A stretch of 64,000 nt of DNA, taken from positions 125,935-189,934 of the forward strand of contig CAYWDX010000001.1 of assembly GCA_964456235.1 (NCBI GenBank). The letters are read 5' to 3'. A model generated the notes under the pieces. That model saw nothing but the letters and a program-made list of their open reading frames with translations, was not told the origin of the DNA and searched no databases. This stretch comes from an uncultured Candidatus Saccharibacteria bacterium (GTDB lineage: Bacteria; Patescibacteriota; Minisyncoccia; UBA6257; 2-01-FULL-56-20). Of this stretch, positions 1,445 to 25,110 are shown piece after piece (positions within the stretch are counted from its first letter, which is position 1; each line of letters begins with the position of its first letter). The position numbers and the translations under genes were made by a program.

Positions 1445-2650
1445 TTAGAATTGGCTCGTCAGTTGGTAGATCGGAACGATGATCGAGAGAGCGATCACGG
1501 CAACAATAATGCCCATAGCAATGAGGAGTGCCGGCTCGAGGAGCGAAACCAGCGCCCGAATATTCCCATCAATGTTCGTTTCGTAAAAATCTGAAAGCGT
1601 CACGAGCACTTCGTCGAGATGGCCGGCGCGTTCGGAAATTGCAATGAGGTTCGTGACCGATTTCGGGAACACTTCCTCGCGCCGAAATGATTCGCCAATC
1701 GTGAGCCCCTTTGCGAGTCCGTCGTGGGCAACGCGCTCGAGCGCCGCGGCAAAATCCCGATTCCCCACGGTCTGCGATGCAATCATAATGCTGTCAACGA
1801 TCGGCATACCGGCCTTCATGAGCGAACTCATCGTCGCCGCCATGCGTTGGACCGCGAGGTCGACATAAATCTTTCTGATGACCGGCAATGCGATCAGCAA
1901 TCGGTTCCATAACCGCTTGCCGGTTTCGGTTTTGTTGATGACGAACAGGAAGGCGATGATGACCGCGAAGAAGATGCCATAGAGCCAGAGGATGTTCGAT
2001 CCGATAAAGAGGCCGACACTGAACACGACGCGCGAGAAGAGCGGCGGGGTGATCGCGCTGCCGTTGAAAACGTTCGCGAGCTTGGGCAGCGCAAAGGTGA
2101 CCAGGAAGGTAAGGATCGCGAGCGCCATAACCAAAACAACGATGGGGTAGACGAGGGCCGATTTCACTTTGGCGCGGAGCTCTGCTTCTCGCTGGAGAGA
2201 AACCGAAAGTTCCTCGAATGTTTTCTGCAAATTGCCCGACGCCTCCGCCGCTTTCACGAGGTTTACGAATGTCGGCGAAAATGTTTCAGGATGTTTGGCG
2301 AACGCCGCGTAAAACGGCTGGCCACGCGTGAGGTTATTGTGCACCTCAAGCAAAAAATCGCGCATCGCCGGCTGGTCGAAATCCGCGATCAAAATATTGA
2401 TGGCCGAGAGGAGATCGGTGCCCACCCGCAACATAAGCGCGAGATATTTCGCGAGGAACACCTTATCGCTCACGCTGATGCCGCCCCAAAACTTCACCGA
2501 CTTCAGGCCCTTTTCCTTGATAGGTTTCACCGACAATGGCCTCATATCCTTCGCCGAGAGATAGCGGAGGACTTCATTCAAGGTGCTCGCTTCGAAATCT
2601 TCCTCAACGGAATTTCCGGCGCGATCGACGGCCAAATAGTGAAACAGCAT
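1445..2650 (-). CDS. pilC: Type IV pilus assembly platform protein PilC (GspF family)
   Basis: 401 aa, duplicated GspF-type domains with 3 TM segments. Sits between pilB and a pilin gene. Confidence 0.9.
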   Translation of the reverse strand: MLFHYLAVDRAGNSVEEDFEASTLNEVLRYLSAKDMRPLSVKPIKEKGLKSVKFWGGISVSDKVFLAKYLALMLRVGTDLLSAINILIADFDQPAMRDFLLEVHNNLTRGQPFYAAFAKHPETFSPTFVNLVKAAEASGNLQKTFEELSVSLQREAELRAKVKSALVYPIVVLVMALAILTFLVTFALPKLANVFNGSAITPPLFSRVVFSVGLFIGSNILWLYGIFFAVIIAFLFVINKTETGKRLWNRLLIALPVIRKIYVDLAVQRMAATMSSLMKAGMPIVDSIMIASQTVGNRDFAAALERVAHDGLAKGLTIGESFRREEVFPKSVTNLIAISERAGHLDEVLVTLSDFYETNIDGNIRALVSLLEPALLIAMGIIVAVIALSIIVPIYQLTSQF

Positions 2651-2675
2651 GTATCAATAGTATACCACGCGCCGA

Positions 2676-4397
2676 CTACTCCCGAATCACGCGCAGCACT
2701 TCTTCGAGCGTCGTTTGTGCGAGTCCCGCCTTCTCGAGACCGTCTTCGAACATCGTCTTCATGCCTTCTTTCCATGCCGTCGCGCGGAGTTCTTCCAAAC
2801 TGAAACGTTCAGCCATAATTTTTTCTTTGACGGCTTCGGTGATGCGGAAAATTTCGAAAATGCCGAGGCGGCCGCGATAGCCGGTCATGCCGCACGCGGA
2901 ACAACCCTTCCCGCGGAATTGCGTCTTCTGCACTTTGGCGCGCTCTGGCGGAATTTGCAGATCCTTCAACTGTTGCGCGACGGTTTTCATCGTGCTCTCA
3001 TCGACGTCGTACGAATAGATGCACGACTGGCAGATCTGGCGGACCAAGCGCTGTGCGACGACGAGGTTTAAAACCGAGACGACGAGGAACGGCGGCACTT
3101 TGAGATCGAAGAAGCGCGGGATCGAGGTCGGCGCGTCGTTCGTGTGGAGCGATGAAAGCAATAAGTGGCCCGTGAGCGCTGCCTGCACGCTGATTTCGGC
3201 GGTTTCGGCGTCTCGAATTTCGCCGACCATCACGATGTTCGGGTCCTGACGCAAAATCGCGCGCAGGCCCGAAGCGAAGGTGATCCCCGCCTGCGGGTTG
3301 ATTTGCATCTGGTTCACGTAGCGCATGTTGTATTCGATCGGGTCTTCAATCGTCGTCACGTTCACCTGCGGCTTGTTCAGAATATTCATGAGCGCGTAGA
3401 GCGTCGTCGTTTTACCGGAACCGGTTGGGCCGCAGGAAAGCACCATGCCGTAGGATTTTTTCAATTCTTCCGTAATGATCGCCGAATCGGTCTCGTTCAA
3501 ACCAAGTTCCTCGAGCGAAAGCGGTTTCTGCGTCGCTTCCAGCAAACGCATTTCAATTTTTTCACCGTAGAAGGTGGGGATCACCGATACGCGGATGTCG
3601 ATCGGCTGGTTCCCTACTTCGTAGCGGAAGCGCCCGTCCTGCGGCAAAAAGTGCTCGTCAATTTTCAAGCCGGCGAGCAATTTGAGGCGCGCGACGATCG
3701 CGGTGTGGACCGCTTTCGCGACGTCCATGATCTCGTACAAAATACCGTCGATGCGGTAGCGGATGAACATGGAATCTTCCAGGACTTCAATGTGGATGTC
3801 CGACGCGCGCGAAGCGAGGGCATACGAAAGGATGTTGTCCACGATGCCGACGATCGGCAACTCGCTCGCCGCCTCCTCCGGCGTCTTCGCGCGCGTCGCG
3901 AGGGACGCTTTGATGTTATCCTCGATCAGTTTTTTGAAATCCTGGCCCAATTCGTATCCGTAAATTGAGAAGCCGCGGTTCAAATCTTCCTGCGTCGCGA
4001 GCATGGGATGGATCTTCCCGTGCAAGCGCTCAGTGAGGAACGAAACCGTTTCCAAATCCGACGGGTCCACCATCGCCGCATCAAACGAGCCATCGGCCTC
4101 GCGCGCGAACACCACCACCTGGCGCTGGCGGGCGATGTCTTCCGGAAGGATCTTCACGACCGACGAATCAATTTTTTGCTTATCGAAATCTACCTGGGGC
4201 ACGCCAAGTTCGCGCGCGATCAGGCTTTGGATATAGTCCGCCGCCATGAAGCCGCCCGAAATAAGCACGTCGATAATGCTCTGATTTTTTCGCTCGGCGT
4301 CGACCGCAAGCTCGTCAAATTTTTCCGGAGAAAGAAGCCCTTCGGATGTCGCTAATTTTTTTATTTCAGAAACAGGCAGCGGGAGCCGCATACTCAT
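2676..4397 (-). CDS. pilB: Type IV pilus assembly ATPase PilB (GspE family)
   Basis: Walker A GPTGSGKTTT, Asp/His boxes, a C-terminal CSxC...CSACG tetracysteine motif and an N-terminal GSPII-type domain. Confidence 0.95.
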   Translation of the reverse strand: MSMRLPLPVSEIKKLATSEGLLSPEKFDELAVDAERKNQSIIDVLISGGFMAADYIQSLIARELGVPQVDFDKQKIDSSVVKILPEDIARQRQVVVFAREADGSFDAAMVDPSDLETVSFLTERLHGKIHPMLATQEDLNRGFSIYGYELGQDFKKLIEDNIKASLATRAKTPEEAASELPIVGIVDNILSYALASRASDIHIEVLEDSMFIRYRIDGILYEIMDVAKAVHTAIVARLKLLAGLKIDEHFLPQDGRFRYEVGNQPIDIRVSVIPTFYGEKIEMRLLEATQKPLSLEELGLNETDSAIITEELKKSYGMVLSCGPTGSGKTTTLYALMNILNKPQVNVTTIEDPIEYNMRYVNQMQINPQAGITFASGLRAILRQDPNIVMVGEIRDAETAEISVQAALTGHLLLSSLHTNDAPTSIPRFFDLKVPPFLVVSVLNLVVAQRLVRQICQSCIYSYDVDESTMKTVAQQLKDLQIPPERAKVQKTQFRGKGCSACGMTGYRGRLGIFEIFRITEAVKEKIMAERFSLEELRATAWKEGMKTMFEDGLEKAGLAQTTLEEVLRVIRE

Positions 4398-4400
4398 ATG

Positions 4401-4440
4401 ATAACAAAAAGTAACATCCCGGCCTACGCCGGGATGTTAC
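4401..4440 (-). terminator. Intrinsic terminator/attenuator between the major pilin gene and pilB
   Basis: Perfect 13-bp inverted repeat gtaacatcccggc/gccgggatgttac (4411-4440) with a 4-nt loop. On the minus strand it is followed by TTTTTGTTAT, which ends 3 nt before the pilB ATG. Confidence 0.75.
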
Positions 4441-4459
4441 CGAAACTATGAGGTGACGG

Positions 4460-5095
4460 TTAGAGCGTTAAACTCGTACCCTGCTCGTACATGAAATTGC
4501 TGCTGCCGCCGTCTGCGTTGTTCACGTCAGCCGTACCGGTGCTGTATTTCAAGCTCTCCATCTCCATACCAATCTTGTAGTTCGTGCCGCTCATGATGTA
4601 GGTGTAGAACATACCACAGCTTGAGAGGGCCGTCGTACCGCACGATGCGCTGCCCGGCGAGTTGATCGGATCAACCGGAAGTTGGCCGATCGGTGCGCCT
4701 GAGCTGATGGCGCCGAAGTTCACCGGAATCCATCCAGATCCCGTAATCACGCGCGAGCTCGAGTTGTTCAGCGACGTCGCCGTCGTGAGCCACTGCGCGC
4801 ACGAGGTGGTGGCTGCGTAGACGCCCGACTGGTTCGGGACATAGAAAGCTGTACCCGTCGCCATACTCGCATAGCAGATCGCCGCCGTTCCAAGGGAAGG
4901 CGAACTCACATCGGCGAGATAAAGCGCGAGGGCGCTCTTCAACGTTGCCGCATCCGAGACGCGGTTGGAATCCCGGGCCTGACGCAGAAGTTCGGCTGGG
5001 TTCAAGCTCAAAATGACCACGGTCGCGAGGACGGCAATGATAGCGATCACGATCAACAGTTCAATGAGCGTGAATGCCTTACGATTCTTTTTCAT
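4460..5095 (-). CDS. Type IV major pilin
   Basis: MKKNRKA/FTLIELLIVIAIIAVLA prepilin N-terminal methylation motif. 211 aa. Own promoter (TGaTATAAT, complement of 5142-5150) and a strong downstream hairpin. Confidence 0.9.
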   Translation of the reverse strand: MKKNRKAFTLIELLIVIAIIAVLATVVILSLNPAELLRQARDSNRVSDAATLKSALALYLADVSSPSLGTAAICYASMATGTAFYVPNQSGVYAATTSCAQWLTTATSLNNSSSRVITGSGWIPVNFGAISSGAPIGQLPVDPINSPGSASCGTTALSSCGMFYTYIMSGTNYKIGMEMESLKYSTGTADVNNADGGSSNFMYEQGTSLTL

Positions 5096-5161
5096 TATTG
5101 TCTTTGTTCTGGTGCAAAACCCGACCTTTATATATAGAACGATTATATCATGACGCGTTTT

Positions 5162-5881
5162 TTAGGCCTGAATATTCATTGTGGATAACTCTTTTGGCGG
5201 ATCTGCTTCGAATTTCAATCGCCGCCCGTCGCGCGCGGTAAATTCAAGCGAAAGCGCATGAAGCGCGAGGCGCGATGCCGCATGAGATTTTCCGTACAGT
5301 CGATCCCCGATGACCGGGTGGCCGATGCTTGCGAGATGAACGCGGATTTGGTGGGTCCGTCCCGTCTTTGGAACCACTTCAAGTAAAGAATTTTCGCCAA
5401 TCTTTTTCACCACGCGATATTCGGTGACGGCCTCCTTCATCATTTTGTTTGAATGGATGCTGCGTTTCAACGTTCCGCTCCGAATTCCGATCGGCGCATC
5501 AATCACGCCGTGATGTTGTTTGGGCATACCCACAACCAACGCGAGATATTTCTTTTTGATCTCATGTTTTTGGAAAAGCGATTTGAAATATTCGAATGAG
5601 TCCTGGGTGCGCGCGACGAGCATCACACCCGAAGTGTCCTTGTCGAGCCGGTGCACAATCCCCGGCCGCAGCTCCGGGTCATCGCCCACTTTTTTCAGTT
5701 CCGGGTAACGTTTGACGAGCCAATCGACGAGCGTATCGTGCTTGCTGCTCGTACTGGGCGCGCCGGGATGTCCCGTGGCGTGCCGGGCGGCGTGCACCTG
5801 CCAGCCGGAGGGCTTATTGATGACAAGAAAATCCTTTTCTTCGTGGATGACCTCGGGGCCCACTAGAACGCCGGGTGCCAT
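5162..5881 (-). CDS. RluA-family 23S rRNA/tRNA pseudouridine synthase
   Basis: Catalytic motif HRLDKDTSGVMLVA and C-terminal GRTHQIRVHL, both RluA/RluD family signatures. Confidence 0.9.
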   Translation of the reverse strand: MAPGVLVGPEVIHEEKDFLVINKPSGWQVHAARHATGHPGAPSTSSKHDTLVDWLVKRYPELKKVGDDPELRPGIVHRLDKDTSGVMLVARTQDSFEYFKSLFQKHEIKKKYLALVVGMPKQHHGVIDAPIGIRSGTLKRSIHSNKMMKEAVTEYRVVKKIGENSLLEVVPKTGRTHQIRVHLASIGHPVIGDRLYGKSHAASRLALHALSLEFTARDGRRLKFEADPPKELSTMNIQA

Positions 5882-20952: not shown

Positions 20953-21042
20953 GGAGGCGTGGCTGAGCGGCCGAAAGCAACTTCCTGCTAAGAAGTTAAG
21001 GGAGCAATCCCTTCGAAGGTTCGAATCCTTCCGCCTCCGCCA
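20953..21042 (+). tRNA. tRNA-Ser (anticodon GCU), the only tRNA here with an encoded CCA
   Basis: Acceptor GGAGGCG/CGCCTCC, anticodon arm ACTTC-CTGCTAA-GAAGT, long variable arm, T arm GAAGG-TTCGAAT-CCTTC, discriminator G then CCA (21040-21042). Confidence 0.92.
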
Positions 21043-21104: not shown

Positions 21105-22163
21105 ATGAAAACTAAGTCCTTAAACAAAAATTTACATTCAGCAAGAACTGCTAAAACAGATGAGTTTTACACTCAACTTATTGATATTGAAAAAGAGGTA
21201 AAACACTATAAAGATCAATTTCGCGGTAAGGTTGTGTATTGCAACTGTGATGATCCGTTTGAAAGCAATTTTTTCCGATATTTTGTGCTCAATTTCAACA
21301 AGCTTGGATTAAAACGACTTATCACAACTAGTTACAAACCATCGCCTATCGCTAACACGCAATTAGGTTTATTCGGGAATGATAAGACTCTCGCAAAGAT
21401 AAAAGGTCGCCCTAAGGTAACTGCTAACAAATTTATCATTAATGAAGCGAAAGATATTGACGGTGATGGCGAATTCAACTTGAAAGACGTTGCTAATCAG
21501 TTAAAGGCAAACAAAAATAACGAGTGGACACCCCTTGAAGGAGATGGTGATTTTCGTAGTGAGGAATCCATAAATTTACTTAAACAATCCGATATTATTG
21601 TAACTAATCCACCATTTTCTTTATTCCGTGAATATCTAGCACAATTAATTGAATACAATAAAAAGTTTTTGATTCTCGGCGATCAAAATGCGGTTACTTA
21701 CAAAGAACCTTTTGGATACATTCAAAATAACAAGTTGTGGCTTGGTTATGATAACGGCGGTACAAAATGGTTTCAAGTTCCAATGGATTACGACATACCA
21801 ACCGAATCAAGAAAGAAAATTGAAAAAGGTATCAAATATTTTAGCATGGGAAGAATTTTGTGGTTTACAAATCTTGATACTACAAAACGACACGATAACT
21901 TAGTACTGTATAAAAAATATGCACCAAAGGAATTTCCTAAATATGACAACTTTGATGTTATAAATGTTGATAAAGTTTCTGACATTCCGATGAACTACGA
22001 CGGTGTTATGGGTGTTCCGATCACATTTGTTGATAAATATAATCCTAAACAATTTGAAATTTTAGGCATAGCAAATTCCGCAAGATGGATTGGTTATAAG
22101 TGCCTCACCCTCATTAAGGGTAGAAAAATATATAATCGCATTTTAATTAAAAGAAAAAAATAA
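21105..22163 (+). CDS. N6-adenine DNA methyltransferase, EcoRI-methylase-like family
   Basis: N-terminal KTDEFYTQ motif and catalytic motif IV IIVTNPPFSLF (NPPF). Start moved to the ATG at 21105 because the track TTG at 21054 lies inside the repeat arm. Stop lies 1 nt before the next gene. Confidence 0.8.
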   Translation: MKTKSLNKNLHSARTAKTDEFYTQLIDIEKEVKHYKDQFRGKVVYCNCDDPFESNFFRYFVLNFNKLGLKRLITTSYKPSPIANTQLGLFGNDKTLAKIKGRPKVTANKFIINEAKDIDGDGEFNLKDVANQLKANKNNEWTPLEGDGDFRSEESINLLKQSDIIVTNPPFSLFREYLAQLIEYNKKFLILGDQNAVTYKEPFGYIQNNKLWLGYDNGGTKWFQVPMDYDIPTESRKKIEKGIKYFSMGRILWFTNLDTTKRHDNLVLYKKYAPKEFPKYDNFDVINVDKVSDIPMNYDGVMGVPITFVDKYNPKQFEILGIANSARWIGYKCLTLIKGRKIYNRILIKRKK

Positions 22164-22164
22164 T

Positions 22165-23256
22165 ATGAAAATTAATCTACATAAAATTCAAATCCGTAAA
22201 GTTTTTGGTGGGTATAAGGATAGTGCCGAAGAGGGAGTCGTTGCTTATGGCGGTAAGCTGGATATTCGACCAAAATACCAGCGAGAATTCGTTTACAAAC
22301 CTGAACAACGCAATGCTGTTATAAATACTGTTCAAAATGAATTTCCACTTAACGTCATGTATTGGATAGAAAATAGTGCTGGTAAATATGAGTTGCTCGA
22401 TGGTCAACAGCGCACTTTAAGTATTTGTCAGTATGTTAATGGTGACTATTCAATTAATGACCGCTATTTCCATAATCTGACCAATGAAGAAAAAGATCAG
22501 ATTCTTGACTACGAACTCATGATCTATTTTTGTGATGGAACAGATAAGGAGCGTATTAAATGGTTCGAGGTGATTAATACGGCTGGTGAAAAACTTACAC
22601 CGCAAGAGTTGCTTAATGCCGTGTATACCGGATCATGGCTCTCAGATGCAAAATTAAAATTTAGTAAATCAGGCTGTGCCGCATATCTTTTGGCGAATGA
22701 CGATGGACAGTTAGTAAGTGGTTCTCCAATTCGGCAGGAATATCTTGAAACTGCATTATCTTGGATCAATAATGGCGATGTTGCTGGCTATATGGCAAAG
22801 CATCAGCACGACAAAAATGCTGAAAAGTTATGGGAATATTTCCAAAATGTAATTGCGTGGGTACGAAAAAATTTCACAAATTATCGTAAAGAAATGGCAA
22901 GTGTGAATTGGGGCGAGCTATACAACGAATTCAAAGATAAAAAGCTAACTGCTACCAAAATTGAAGCAGAGATTAGCAAATTAATGCAGGATGAGGACGT
23001 TACCAAAAAGTCGGGTATCTATCCGTATGTTTTGATGAGGCAAGAAAGGTATCTTTCGATTCGTGCCTTCACAGACAAAATGAAACGTGAAGCATTTGAG
23101 AGGCAAAATGGTAAGTGTTCATTTTGTAAGAAAAAATTTGATATTTCCGAAATGGAAGCCGATCATATTTCACCTTGGCACGAAGGTGGAAAAACCATAG
23201 CTCAAAATTGCCAAATGTTGTGCAAGCAGGACAATCGCACTAAATCTGGAAAATAA
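22165..23256 (+). CDS. DUF262 (ParB-like/GmrSD N-terminal) domain protein fused to a C-terminal HNH nuclease
   Basis: DUF262 signatures IRPKYQREFVY and LLDGQQRTLSI. C-terminal HNH: CSFCKK...ADHISPWHEGGKT..NCQMLCKQDNRTK. Confidence 0.8.
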   Translation: MKINLHKIQIRKVFGGYKDSAEEGVVAYGGKLDIRPKYQREFVYKPEQRNAVINTVQNEFPLNVMYWIENSAGKYELLDGQQRTLSICQYVNGDYSINDRYFHNLTNEEKDQILDYELMIYFCDGTDKERIKWFEVINTAGEKLTPQELLNAVYTGSWLSDAKLKFSKSGCAAYLLANDDGQLVSGSPIRQEYLETALSWINNGDVAGYMAKHQHDKNAEKLWEYFQNVIAWVRKNFTNYRKEMASVNWGELYNEFKDKKLTATKIEAEISKLMQDEDVTKKSGIYPYVLMRQERYLSIRAFTDKMKREAFERQNGKCSFCKKKFDISEMEADHISPWHEGGKTIAQNCQMLCKQDNRTKSGK

Positions 23257-23263
23257 AAACTTT

Positions 23264-24388
23264 TTAGGCTGGTTGAACAAATTTAACTCGAGGTCTTAAG
23301 TGGGAAAATTTTCTCCAAGCATCTTTTACACCCATTTCATGTAGTTCGTGTGCAACCCTTCCAGCAACTATAGCCGGAGATACATTAATCTCCTTTGCGA
23401 ACTTGATAATACGATCATCAGCAGAAACTCTGTCACCAGCTTTAAACTCATTAAACTTTGCATCAGAAATCAAAGTTTTACGTGCAAATTCATCGGCTTC
23501 TTTTTCTTTATCCGCTAATTCACTGTTTTCTCTTTTCTCAAACTCTATAAACTGGTCCTTTTTACCATGTTTAAGTAAATGGCCAATTTCATGAAAGAAA
23601 GTGAACCAAAAACGATCTATGTGAGCACCCCTCAAACTTACTTGTATAAGTGCTTTATCAGCTGAAAGCCATCTTGTAGCACCATCAACAAAAGTATTTG
23701 AAAAATAAGGCACAAAAGCAACAGCAACGCCAGATTCTGAACAAATCTCTTGTATGCCTTTTTCAATACCAGTAACATCTTTTTTGGTTAATGCCCGCAA
23801 ACTTTCAATTGAGTTTGTCAGCTTATCTTTATCAAAAGATTTAGTCTGTATTTTGTTTCCCTCGATCTCACCACATCTAAGCCATGCGGCAAGACATTCA
23901 TGCGACAAATTACTCTGTTTAGATTGTCTAAATGCAACCTGATGAGTTTTTTGGACAAATCCTAAAGAGCTTACACCAAAGAAGTTTAAGAGATTAAACA
24001 CCTTTTCTTTTGAATCTTTTGATTTTGGTACATAATTCCATTTTGCCAACTCTTTATAGCAATCAAATTTATCTAAGGAAGGCAACTCCTTTTCTAGCTT
24101 TTTATCTCTTTCAATTCTTGCCAATGTTTCCTGATAGCTTCTTTCAAGGCTATTCCAAAACACAGGAGACATGCCGAATACAGCAGAAAGCTTTAACGCT
24201 GTTTCCGGGGTAATAGGGTTCTTTCCCTGAATAATCTCATTGATTGTCTTTGGAGTAAGATCTGTTCTTGCGGCAAGATCAGTCTGGGTCATGTTTACGT
24301 TATCCAATAACTCCTTAAGAGTATTACCTGGATGAATTGCGATATTTGGATTGAAATCGTTTGTAGCCATATGTTTAGTGGTAATCAA
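23264..24388 (-). CDS. HigA-type XRE antitoxin fused to an ImmA/IrrE (M78) zinc metallopeptidase domain
   Basis: N-terminal HigA-like HTH (IHPGNTLKELLDNVNMTQTDLAARTDLTPKTINEIIQGKNPITPETALKL). C-terminal HEIGH zinc motif in an ImmA/IrrE context. Overlaps higB by 14 nt. Confidence 0.8.
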   Translation of the reverse strand: MITTKHMATNDFNPNIAIHPGNTLKELLDNVNMTQTDLAARTDLTPKTINEIIQGKNPITPETALKLSAVFGMSPVFWNSLERSYQETLARIERDKKLEKELPSLDKFDCYKELAKWNYVPKSKDSKEKVFNLLNFFGVSSLGFVQKTHQVAFRQSKQSNLSHECLAAWLRCGEIEGNKIQTKSFDKDKLTNSIESLRALTKKDVTGIEKGIQEICSESGVAVAFVPYFSNTFVDGATRWLSADKALIQVSLRGAHIDRFWFTFFHEIGHLLKHGKKDQFIEFEKRENSELADKEKEADEFARKTLISDAKFNEFKAGDRVSADDRIIKFAKEINVSPAIVAGRVAHELHEMGVKDAWRKFSHLRPRVKFVQPA

Positions 24389-24689
24389 TTATTTCAATAA
24401 TCATGACCTTGCTTATCGACTTTAGATCTTGAGGATCTCCATTTAAATAGGTGATGATTATTCGATACGGATGTTTGATATCTAAAGCATAACATTTTTT
24501 CAGCTTACCCTTTAACGGGTGCAGTCTGATTTGAGGAAGCTTCGATATATCAGACAGACTCTCCGCAGACAATAACTCATTAATCCTCTGGACTATCAAT
24601 TCTGCCTGAAGATGGCCGTATCTCCTCTTTAATAAGGCACCATCTTCGCAGGTTTTCTTGAGTTTTTTGTCTTTAAAGGAGAGTTCCAT
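24375..24689 (-). CDS. higB: HigB-family (RelE-fold) toxin, plasmid maintenance system killer type
   Basis: 104 aa. N-terminal FKDKKLKK, central LHPLKGKLKKCYALDI..PYRIIITY, C-terminal ...IIDYH, all characteristic of this family. Toxin-first gene order as in higBA. Confidence 0.75.
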   Translation of the reverse strand: MELSFKDKKLKKTCEDGALLKRRYGHLQAELIVQRINELLSAESLSDISKLPQIRLHPLKGKLKKCYALDIKHPYRIIITYLNGDPQDLKSISKVMIIEIIDYH

Positions 24690-24792: not shown

Positions 24793-24820
24793 TTGACATT
24801 GTGCAGGAAGAGCATATAAT
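24793..24820 (+). promoter_or_regulatory. Near-consensus sigma70-type promoter (TTGACA-16 nt-TATAAT)
   Basis: TTGACA at 24793-24798 and TATAAT at 24815-24820, facing the DUF2188 ORF. Confidence 0.6.
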
Positions 24821-24876: not shown

Positions 24877-25110
24877 ATAGCCACAAAACAATACAAGCAA
24901 GTTTGGGTCAGTCCAATCGGTGATGATTGGAAAGTGAAAAGCGCCGGGGCTGATCGAGCTGCCGCAATCGTAGACACGAAAGCGGAAGCGGTGGAGCTAG
25001 CACGTGAGATCGCGATCAATAAGAAAGCAGAACTTATTGTTCAAAACGCAGATGGTGAGATTGGGTGGAGGAATTCGTATGGTCACGATTCTTTCCCTCC
25101 TCGGGGATAG
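24877..25110 (+). CDS. DUF2188-family small protein lacking a canonical start codon (ATA at 24877; possible pseudogene)
   Basis: The frame is open from 24862 and reads (I)ATKQYKQVWVSPIGDDWKVKSAGADRAAAIVDTKAEAVELAREIAINKKAELIVQNADGEIGWRNSYGHDSFPPRG*, matching the DUF2188 pattern (W.V....a.r....tK.eA...a...a....el.i...dG.i......g.Dp.PP.G). There is no in-frame ATG/GTG/TTG before 24934. Followed by two hairpins at about 25119-25143 and 25156-25182. Confidence 0.6.
   Translation: MATKQYKQVWVSPIGDDWKVKSAGADRAAAIVDTKAEAVELAREIAINKKAELIVQNADGEIGWRNSYGHDSFPPRG

Follow-up and report, generated by a model that had tools for sequence, protein, structure and literature searches.

We identified a two-gene restriction-modification (R-M) module in a 64,000-nucleotide stretch of DNA, hereafter the window, from an uncultured Candidatus Saccharibacteria bacterium (GenBank contig CAYWDX010000001.1). 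The first gene encodes an EcoRI-family adenine methyltransferase, and the second encodes a protein that joins an N-terminal DUF262 domain to a C-terminal HNH nuclease domain. The pair is very probably a complete and apparently intact module of the BanLI family, which is filed as Type II by REBASE. The window nuclease shares 52% identity with R.BanLI over the full length of both proteins (1-363 vs 1-372, BLASTP, E 2e-142), and the window methylase shares 51% identity with M.BanLI (E 1e-119); both alignments are collinear. These full-length identities place the pair in the BanLI family, and it is a further member of a catalogued family and not a new kind of system. The assignment is carried by homology, by architecture, by co-conservation of the two genes and by intact motifs in both proteins. 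The window copy is presumably expressed and active, and would recognize a short motif of its own.

The BanLI system and its homologue in the window

The BanLI locus consists of an integrase gene followed by genes for an EcoRI-like methylase (41.7 kDa) and a 43.5-kDa restriction protein (PMC3990576). Single-molecule real-time sequencing detected N6-methyladenine (m6A) at RTC(m6A)GG on a single strand only (PMC3990576, 2014). Plasmid DNA methylated by M.BanLI in E. coli transformed the Bifidobacterium host 1.8-fold better, and the cloned locus reduced P1vir plating in E. coli to ~0.1 (PMC3990576). Given one methylase and an asymmetric site, the authors proposed an incomplete Type IIS system from which a second methylase has been lost (PMC3990576). 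In REBASE the Type II endonuclease for RTCAGG in Bifidobacterium animalis subsp. lactis is a gene that carries the annotation 'DUF262 domain-containing protein' (PMC13091528, 2026).

The BanLI locus was retrieved by scanning metagenome contigs with the published banLI.M-end primer (Table S1), which returned five human-gut contigs. All four published BanLI primers map to one contig (L088) in the expected layout (locus 2200-5817). Two entries for B. animalis in GenBank, 'HNH endonuclease family protein [Bifidobacterium]' and 'adenine-specific methyltransferase EcoRI family protein [Bifidobacterium]', match the proteins encoded on this contig byte for byte. Among the top 120 matches of a protein search that started from a homologue on a Ruania plasmid, none was from Bifidobacterium. 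R.BanLI (372 aa) matches the PADLOC model PDLC03418 with 905 bits over positions 1-372/372. This model is essentially R.BanLI itself, and standard defence annotation therefore already calls the pair a Type II R-M system.

The forward primer published for 'RM.BanLI', into which a ribosome-binding site was engineered, matches the start codon of the integrase (2200) rather than that of banLI.M (3498). The BanLI restriction construct accordingly contained the integrase together with both R-M genes, which may bear on their expression and on the weak plating effect of ~0.1.

Both pairs share the order of methylase then nuclease, an overlapping or abutting junction, a PF13651 methylase with a DUF262 plus HNH nuclease, and the same catalytic motifs. 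Both also lie in a horizontally acquired segment of low guanine-plus-cytosine (GC) content. BanLI is preceded by an integrase, whereas the window module abuts a tRNA-Ser gene and has no integrase. With ~50% identity and different methylase variable blocks, the window motif need not be RTCAGG.

Gene coordinates and junction

The methylase open reading frame (ORF) begins with an ATG at 21105 and ends with the TAA at 22161-22163; that of the nuclease begins with an ATG at 22165 and ends with a stop codon at 23254-23256. Base 22164 is the lone spacer between them. A mechanical list of ORFs starts the methylase at a TTG (21054), but the ATG at 21105 is backed by its homologues and by a gene call made independently on a contig from the Logan collection (352 aa). 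That contig, independent of the window, carries the pair in an identical arrangement. One Logan contig originates from SRR12313479. The junction implies translational coupling in which the methylase would be translated first. The coordinates of the module, its domains and its neighbours are collected in Table 1.

Table 1. Features of the R-M module and adjacent genes in the window.
Feature	Position	Strand	Evidence
m6A DNA methyltransferase, EcoRI family, M.BanLI homologue, 352 aa	21105..22163	+	PF13651, PADLOC PDLC03297, M.BanLI alignment
Junction of the two genes: stop codon TAA, a single spacer nucleotide, then ATG	22161..22167	+	Sequence; family junction counts
Restriction endonuclease subunit, R.BanLI homologue, 363 aa	22165..23256	+	DUF262, helical middle region, C-terminal HNH
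DUF262/GmrSD_N domain, aa 34-154	22264..22626	+	PF03235, E 3e-20; QR at aa 39-40, DGQQR at aa 79-83
HNH nuclease domain, aa 318-361	23116..23247	+	PF01844, E 2e-11
tRNA-Ser(GCT), context only	20953..21042	+	ARAGORN
HigA-like HTH_3 + Peptidase_M78 protein, 374 aa	23264-24388	-	PADLOC PD-Lambda-2_B, E 3e-38; HigA TIGR02607
HigB-like toxin gene, overlaps HigA-like gene	24375-24689	-	
DUF2188 small protein gene	24934-25110	+	PADLOC candidate PDC-S16, E 2.5e-21

A preliminary description of this DNA, made from its sequence, had placed the stop codon of an EcoRI-family methylase one nucleotide before the ATG of a DUF262 plus HNH protein, and the ORFs and Pfam matches agree with it. It had also regarded the coupling of a methylase to a DUF262 nuclease as an atypical arrangement. 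This part does not hold, as the arrangement is already catalogued, both as R.BanLI in REBASE (PMC13091528) and as PADLOC PDLC03418. Classification by profile models, which the description had suggested, returned the full-length PADLOC Type II models PDLC03297 and PDLC03418 for the two proteins.

Domains and motifs of the two proteins

The window methylase matches PF13651 (EcoRI_methylase) with an E-value of 1e-129 and the PADLOC model MTase_II PDLC03297 at full length (E 5e-117). The catalytic amino-methyltransferase motif NPPF lies at aa 168-171 (nt 21606-21617). A sequence search of the PDB with the methylase as query gave no matches. The EcoRI system has a methylase of the same Pfam family. 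However, R.EcoRI is a PD-(D/E)XK homodimer that is unrelated to the DUF262-HNH protein, and its site is palindromic.

The window nuclease matches the PADLOC model REase_II PDLC03418 with residues 1-363 on 1-372/372 (E 7e-128), in addition to the two Pfam domains listed in Table 1. The domain E-values of both proteins are far beyond chance. The DGQQR motif (nt 22399-22413) is kept in 379 of 390 nuclease relatives in a motif census. Among 108 diverse relatives the invariant residues are Q39, R40, D79, G80, R83, N138, Q147 and E148, which are concentrated in the DUF262 motifs. In SspE the DGQQR motif of DUF262 is needed for GTP hydrolysis (PMC9646914). As the invariant residues of the window family sit in motifs that are essential for GTP hydrolysis in SspE, a nucleoside triphosphate (NTP)-binding role is likely for the DUF262 domain, with QR and DGQQR as the predicted NTP-binding motifs.

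A helical region of ~150 residues separates DUF262 from the HNH domain. The residues of the latter are C318-x2-C321, D333-H334 (nt 23161-23166), N348 and C353-x2-D356-N357. The closest solved structures to the nuclease are BrxU and SspE, and its HNH domain resembles those of Gme HNH, McrA and Cas9. PF07510 (DUF1524) was not detected in the 363-aa protein, in which the C-terminus is a canonical PF01844 HNH domain. Matches to the NCBIfam models for Cas9d and IscB were dismissed, as they cover the HNH domain only and score far under the cut-offs. The PADLOC models Menshen NsnA (PDLC03877) and PD-T4-2_A were likewise rejected as partial matches confined to DUF262 (aa 30-158). Membership in Menshen (NsnABC) was rejected as a whole: the NsnB and NsnC partners are not present, the neighbours are the methylase and HigBA-like genes, and the full-length match is to REase_II. 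A literature search (DUF262 with EcoRI or REBASE; PF13651) did not find a biochemical study of this type of DUF262-HNH nuclease.

Distribution and co-conservation of the pair

The nuclease family is very large. Clustering at 90% identity gives over 8000 clusters, and the top 120 matches are all at least 78% identical and mostly from metagenome-assembled genomes (MAGs) of Patescibacteria; at 50% identity there are 463 clusters with E <= 1e-30. A nuclease profile scan of one genome per species identified at least 324 relatives, and the best 80 loci were surveyed. These cover many bacterial phyla as well as archaea (Methanobacterium, Pacearchaeota). Of the 80 species-level loci, 75 carry a gene for an EcoRI-family methylase upstream of the nuclease gene and on its strand, which is ~97% of those that can be evaluated. 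The preliminary description had allowed that the exact pair might not be co-conserved elsewhere, which this survey of neighbourhoods contradicts. Of the five exceptions, three are cut by contig ends, one (L012) has just 1.2 kb of upstream sequence, and the last (L014) is discussed below.

The distance between the two genes is 25 nt or less in 56 of 71 methylase-nuclease pairs, the commonest form being a 4-nt ATGA overlap. The tight junction is therefore a trait of the whole family and not due to chance. Annotated pairs are also found on plasmids from at least seven phyla, among them Bacillota, Actinomycetota, Pseudomonadota and Bacteroidota; one of these plasmids, from Ligilactobacillus, is 7.5 kb long and has just four genes. 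In one metagenomic representative (P0144, 688 aa) the two proteins form a natural single-chain fusion, with the methylase at the N-terminus and the DUF262-HNH nuclease at the C-terminus. The pair is also phage-borne, occurring in Flavobacterium phage vB_FspS_laban6-1 (L091) at 1778-4140 with a 4-nt overlap. The phage pair is inserted beside the tail tape-measure gene in the opposite orientation, in the manner of a moron.

Additional genes occur at the junction in some loci. A RhuM-family gene (PF13310, E down to 1.5e-112) recurs either between methylase and nuclease or directly upstream of the nuclease (L009, 4949-5992; L014, 3561-4523; L046, 4848-5525; also L030 and L012). L014 itself is a Patescibacteria MAG contig (JAHJSK010000083.1) in which a full-length nuclease gene at 4525-5616 lies beside the RhuM gene. 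At the same position L006 has an insert encoding DUF2130 and T5orf172, L044 one encoding DUF6261 and L059 one encoding Bro-N. Accessory genes thus seem to have a hotspot where methylase and nuclease meet.

A constant nuclease and a variable methylase

The two proteins differ in how conservation is distributed along their lengths. Across 71 pairs the nuclease is evenly conserved over its full length (sliding-window values of 0.53-0.88) with hardly any indels, and the mean pairwise nuclease identity across phyla is 63%. The family is under strong purifying selection. In the methylases of the same pairs, conservation is poor and indels are frequent in three blocks (window aa ~85-135, ~215-250 and >=320). 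Overall, the distances of methylase and nuclease correlate (Mantel r 0.51, p 0.001).

Closely related nucleases are found beside methylases with different blocks. Loci L064 (150-2360) and L075 (4786-7083) have nucleases that are 94% identical, whereas identity between their methylases is 62% over the core and 27% over the variable blocks. For L038 and L050 the nuclease identity is 84% and that of the variable blocks 18%; for L053 and L066 the values are 99% and 62%. The methylases of L064 and L075 still have a common C-terminal tail (..IPYTxEESQMSMAAEP), which indicates that an internal segment of the methylase was swapped by recombination inside a conserved operon.

A scan of 70 loci identified no second amino- or C5-methyltransferase motif within +-4 kb. 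As a second methylase is found in 0 of 70 loci, one methylase with one nuclease is the family norm and not a degenerate state peculiar to BanLI.

Proposed mode of action

We propose that the EcoRI-family enzyme methylates adenine at N6 in a short motif of host DNA, and that the DUF262-HNH protein acts as the restriction subunit, attacking unmarked motifs and cutting via its HNH active site. The ParB-like DUF262 domain would most likely serve as an NTP-binding switch. With the methylase made first and the nuclease coupled to it, a fresh copy of the module would protect the genome before cutting begins. The module was probably acquired horizontally, within a 4.3-kb low-GC island beside the tRNA-Ser gene.

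As to how the nuclease finds its target, we tentatively favor, at slightly less than even odds, a version that parallels Type I and Type III systems: the nuclease would have no sequence specificity of its own and would borrow that of the methylase. If the variable blocks set specificity, an unchanging nuclease cannot read the sequence independently, and the methylase would have to supply it. The even conservation of the nuclease, the variable blocks of the methylase, the mismatch between L064 and L075, and the lack of a second methylase all support this version. The P0144 fusion also fits a nuclease guided by its methylase, a principle known from Type I, Type III and Type IIG systems.

Alternatively, the system may be a classical Type II (IIS- or IIP-like) one in which the nuclease itself reads the motif of the methylase, the two proteins never interact, and DUF262 is a DNA-binding or dimerization module. 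Both REBASE and PADLOC class the family as Type II, with R and M as separate genes, the authors of the BanLI study read it as Type IIS (PMC3990576), and the 150 helical residues that separate DUF262 from HNH could be a DNA-binding region. However, the nuclease contains neither a variable segment nor indels by which it could follow a change in specificity, and nucleases that are 84-99% identical adjoin methylases with variable blocks that are 18-62% identical. Under independent recognition a mismatched methylase would fail to protect the genome, unless specificity does not depend on the blocks. In addition, a Type IIS enzyme with an asymmetric site normally requires methylation of both strands, and none of the 70 loci has a second methylase for this purpose. 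Independent recognition is a possibility that we consider somewhat doubtful.

The preliminary description had offered two views of the pair: that the DUF262-HNH enzyme cuts DNA lacking the modification and the methylase shields self DNA from it, in a Type II-like manner, or that the pair senses modification in the manner of Ssp or Dnd systems. The former is supported by ~51-52% full-length identity to BanLI, for which RTC(m6A)GG methylation and a modest restriction that is relieved by methylation have been demonstrated (PMC3990576), and by ~97% co-conservation. The latter, along with a type IV reading, lacks support, since the near-obligate methylase, the P0144 fusion and the direction of the BanLI effect favor protection. 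For a modification-dependent (GmrSD/BrxU-like) or modification-sensing (SspE-like) effector with a methylase that is not its protective partner, one can cite the closest solved structures, BrxU and SspE, and the fact that the DUF262 enzymes characterized to date are of these kinds. GmrSD, BrxU and SspE also have the N-terminal ParB-like DUF262 domain with DGQQR. However, a nuclease that cuts m6A-containing DNA would be suicidal in a self-methylating cell, yet the pair is inherited together with the methylase first, and the two are even fused. Methylation by M.BanLI raised and did not lower plasmid establishment in the BanLI host (PMC3990576). The window protein has a canonical PF01844 HNH domain on 363 aa, not the DUF1524 domain of the ~560-770-aa GmrSD/SspE proteins. 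GmrSD and BrxU are stand-alone proteins of ~560-600 aa that cut DNA with modified cytosine, whereas the window protein is of a type that is nearly always coupled to a methylase. SspE is much larger and senses host phosphorothioate marks, whereas the presumed mark in the window is m6A made by a single methylase, for which the BanLI data point to protective methylation. The window nuclease does not have the DUF1524-type C-terminus on at least ~560 aa that these enzymes have, and it is coupled to a cognate methylase, whereas they stand alone or are paired with a phosphorothioate module. We consider an effector of this kind very unlikely, though stimulation of the NTPase by self marks, in an Ssp-like mode, is formally possible.

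Several observations weigh against an active, methylase-guided BanLI-type module in the window. The restriction reported for BanLI is weak (plating ~0.1; transformation 1.8-fold), and its authors deemed the system incomplete (PMC3990576). The variable blocks of the methylase are putative recognition domains, and a complex of methylase and nuclease is hypothetical. L014 has no methylase within 10.6 kb of its nuclease; it is a possible solitary nuclease, which is unexpected for a toxic restriction enzyme, and it exemplifies that such a nuclease is at least sometimes tolerated. The fourth zinc ligand of the window HNH finger is Asp and not Cys (CKQDN, aa 353-357, nt 23221-23235), though it is conserved clade-wide: the exact CKQDN motif occurs in 69 of 120 close relatives, and in more distant relatives the ligand is mostly Cys (CxxCN) and in some cases His. 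As Cys, His and Asp are all able to bind metal, the Asp is not read as inactivating. Finally, a promoter scan found no sigma-70-like promoter between the tRNA and the methylase, with site counts equal to those in shuffled controls.

The lack of a recognizable promoter would also suit a decaying or silent passenger on a recent island, or a selfish addiction element with no role in defence, as would the foreign low-GC island, the adjacent toxin-antitoxin pair and the host DNA, in which RTCAGG is not avoided (29 observed vs 29.5 expected, order-4 Markov). However, both ORFs are full length with every catalytic residue conserved, the same arrangement is present on an independent contig, and the family is under strong purifying selection. 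A silent or purely selfish element is therefore unlikely. Among palindromes, GAATTC ranks second in under-representation within the host part of the window (1-21042 and 25401-64000), with 18 on both strands vs 37.6 expected (z -3.2). This deficit, of note only in view of the EcoRI family of the methylase, is not significant after ~80 tests in 60 kb, and no motif can be inferred from avoidance.

Relation to Type III systems

If the nuclease does borrow the specificity of the methylase, the BanLI family may have been misfiled as ordinary Type II, and would form a distinct and very widespread R-M class with Type III-like logic; we offer this as a possibility about which we remain doubtful. One EcoRI-family 'Mod' would hold all specificity in exchangeable blocks and place its mark on a single strand of an asymmetric site, and a 'Res' subunit that stays constant would be recruited by, or complexed with, the methylase. 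The ParB-type DUF262 NTP switch would replace the helicase ATPase, providing inter-site communication or a licence for HNH cutting. The resemblance would arise from the combination of methylase-supplied specificity with one-strand methylation of the asymmetric BanLI site.

The likeness to Type III systems (Mod/Res, e.g. EcoP15I) is by analogy only. It consists of a single methylase with one-strand methylation of an asymmetric site (known from BanLI), and of a conserved NTPase-nuclease subunit beside a methylase bearing variable regions. Type III Res combines an SF2 helicase-type ATPase with a PD-(D/E)XK nuclease, and its partner Mod is a methylase of the beta class; the window pair has neither fold. 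Type III cleavage also requires two sites in inverse orientation. Membership in Type III was rejected, as DUF262 and HNH are the only domains detected in the window nuclease.

Genomic setting of the module

Directly 3' of tRNA-Ser(GCT) the GC content drops from ~0.56-0.62 to ~0.29-0.40, from ~21040 to ~25400. This 4.3-kb island is flanked by housekeeping genes, with infB and rbfA upstream and uppP, a PAP2 gene, rpsR, nusG and secE downstream. No integrase was found in the island. A search of its far side for direct repeats of the tRNA-Ser 3' end, as would mark att sites, gave only short chance repeats. In addition to the R-M pair the island contains the HigBA-like genes and the DUF2188 gene (Table 1), and it looks like a small defence/addiction island. 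The HigBA-like neighbours were rejected as part of the module, as they are absent from all 84 of the other loci examined. As the toxin-antitoxin genes adjoin the pair in no other examined locus, the R-M pair is a self-contained unit.

A perfect consensus sigma-70 promoter (TTGACA-16-TATAAT) is located at 24793-24820, upstream of the DUF2188 gene. In two other loci that are unrelated (L024 and L025), homologues of DUF2188 likewise lie no more than ~2 kb from the R-M pair.

Significance of the family

Taken alone, the copy in the window adds little, as standard annotation already identifies it as Type II R-M and experiments have been done on a homologue. However, the family is very large and spread across bacteria, archaea, plasmids and phages, and its interest lies in the mechanism by which targets are found. 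The combination of a constant DUF262-HNH protein, swappable methylase blocks and the consistent lack of a second methylase contradicts the published view of BanLI as a crippled Type IIS system. This comparative pattern makes the discrimination of unmethylated DNA by a ParB-like NTPase nuclease a directly testable question. A Type III-like class, if it proves to be real, would be the first in which a ParB/CTPase-like fold drives the restriction of DNA that is unmodified.

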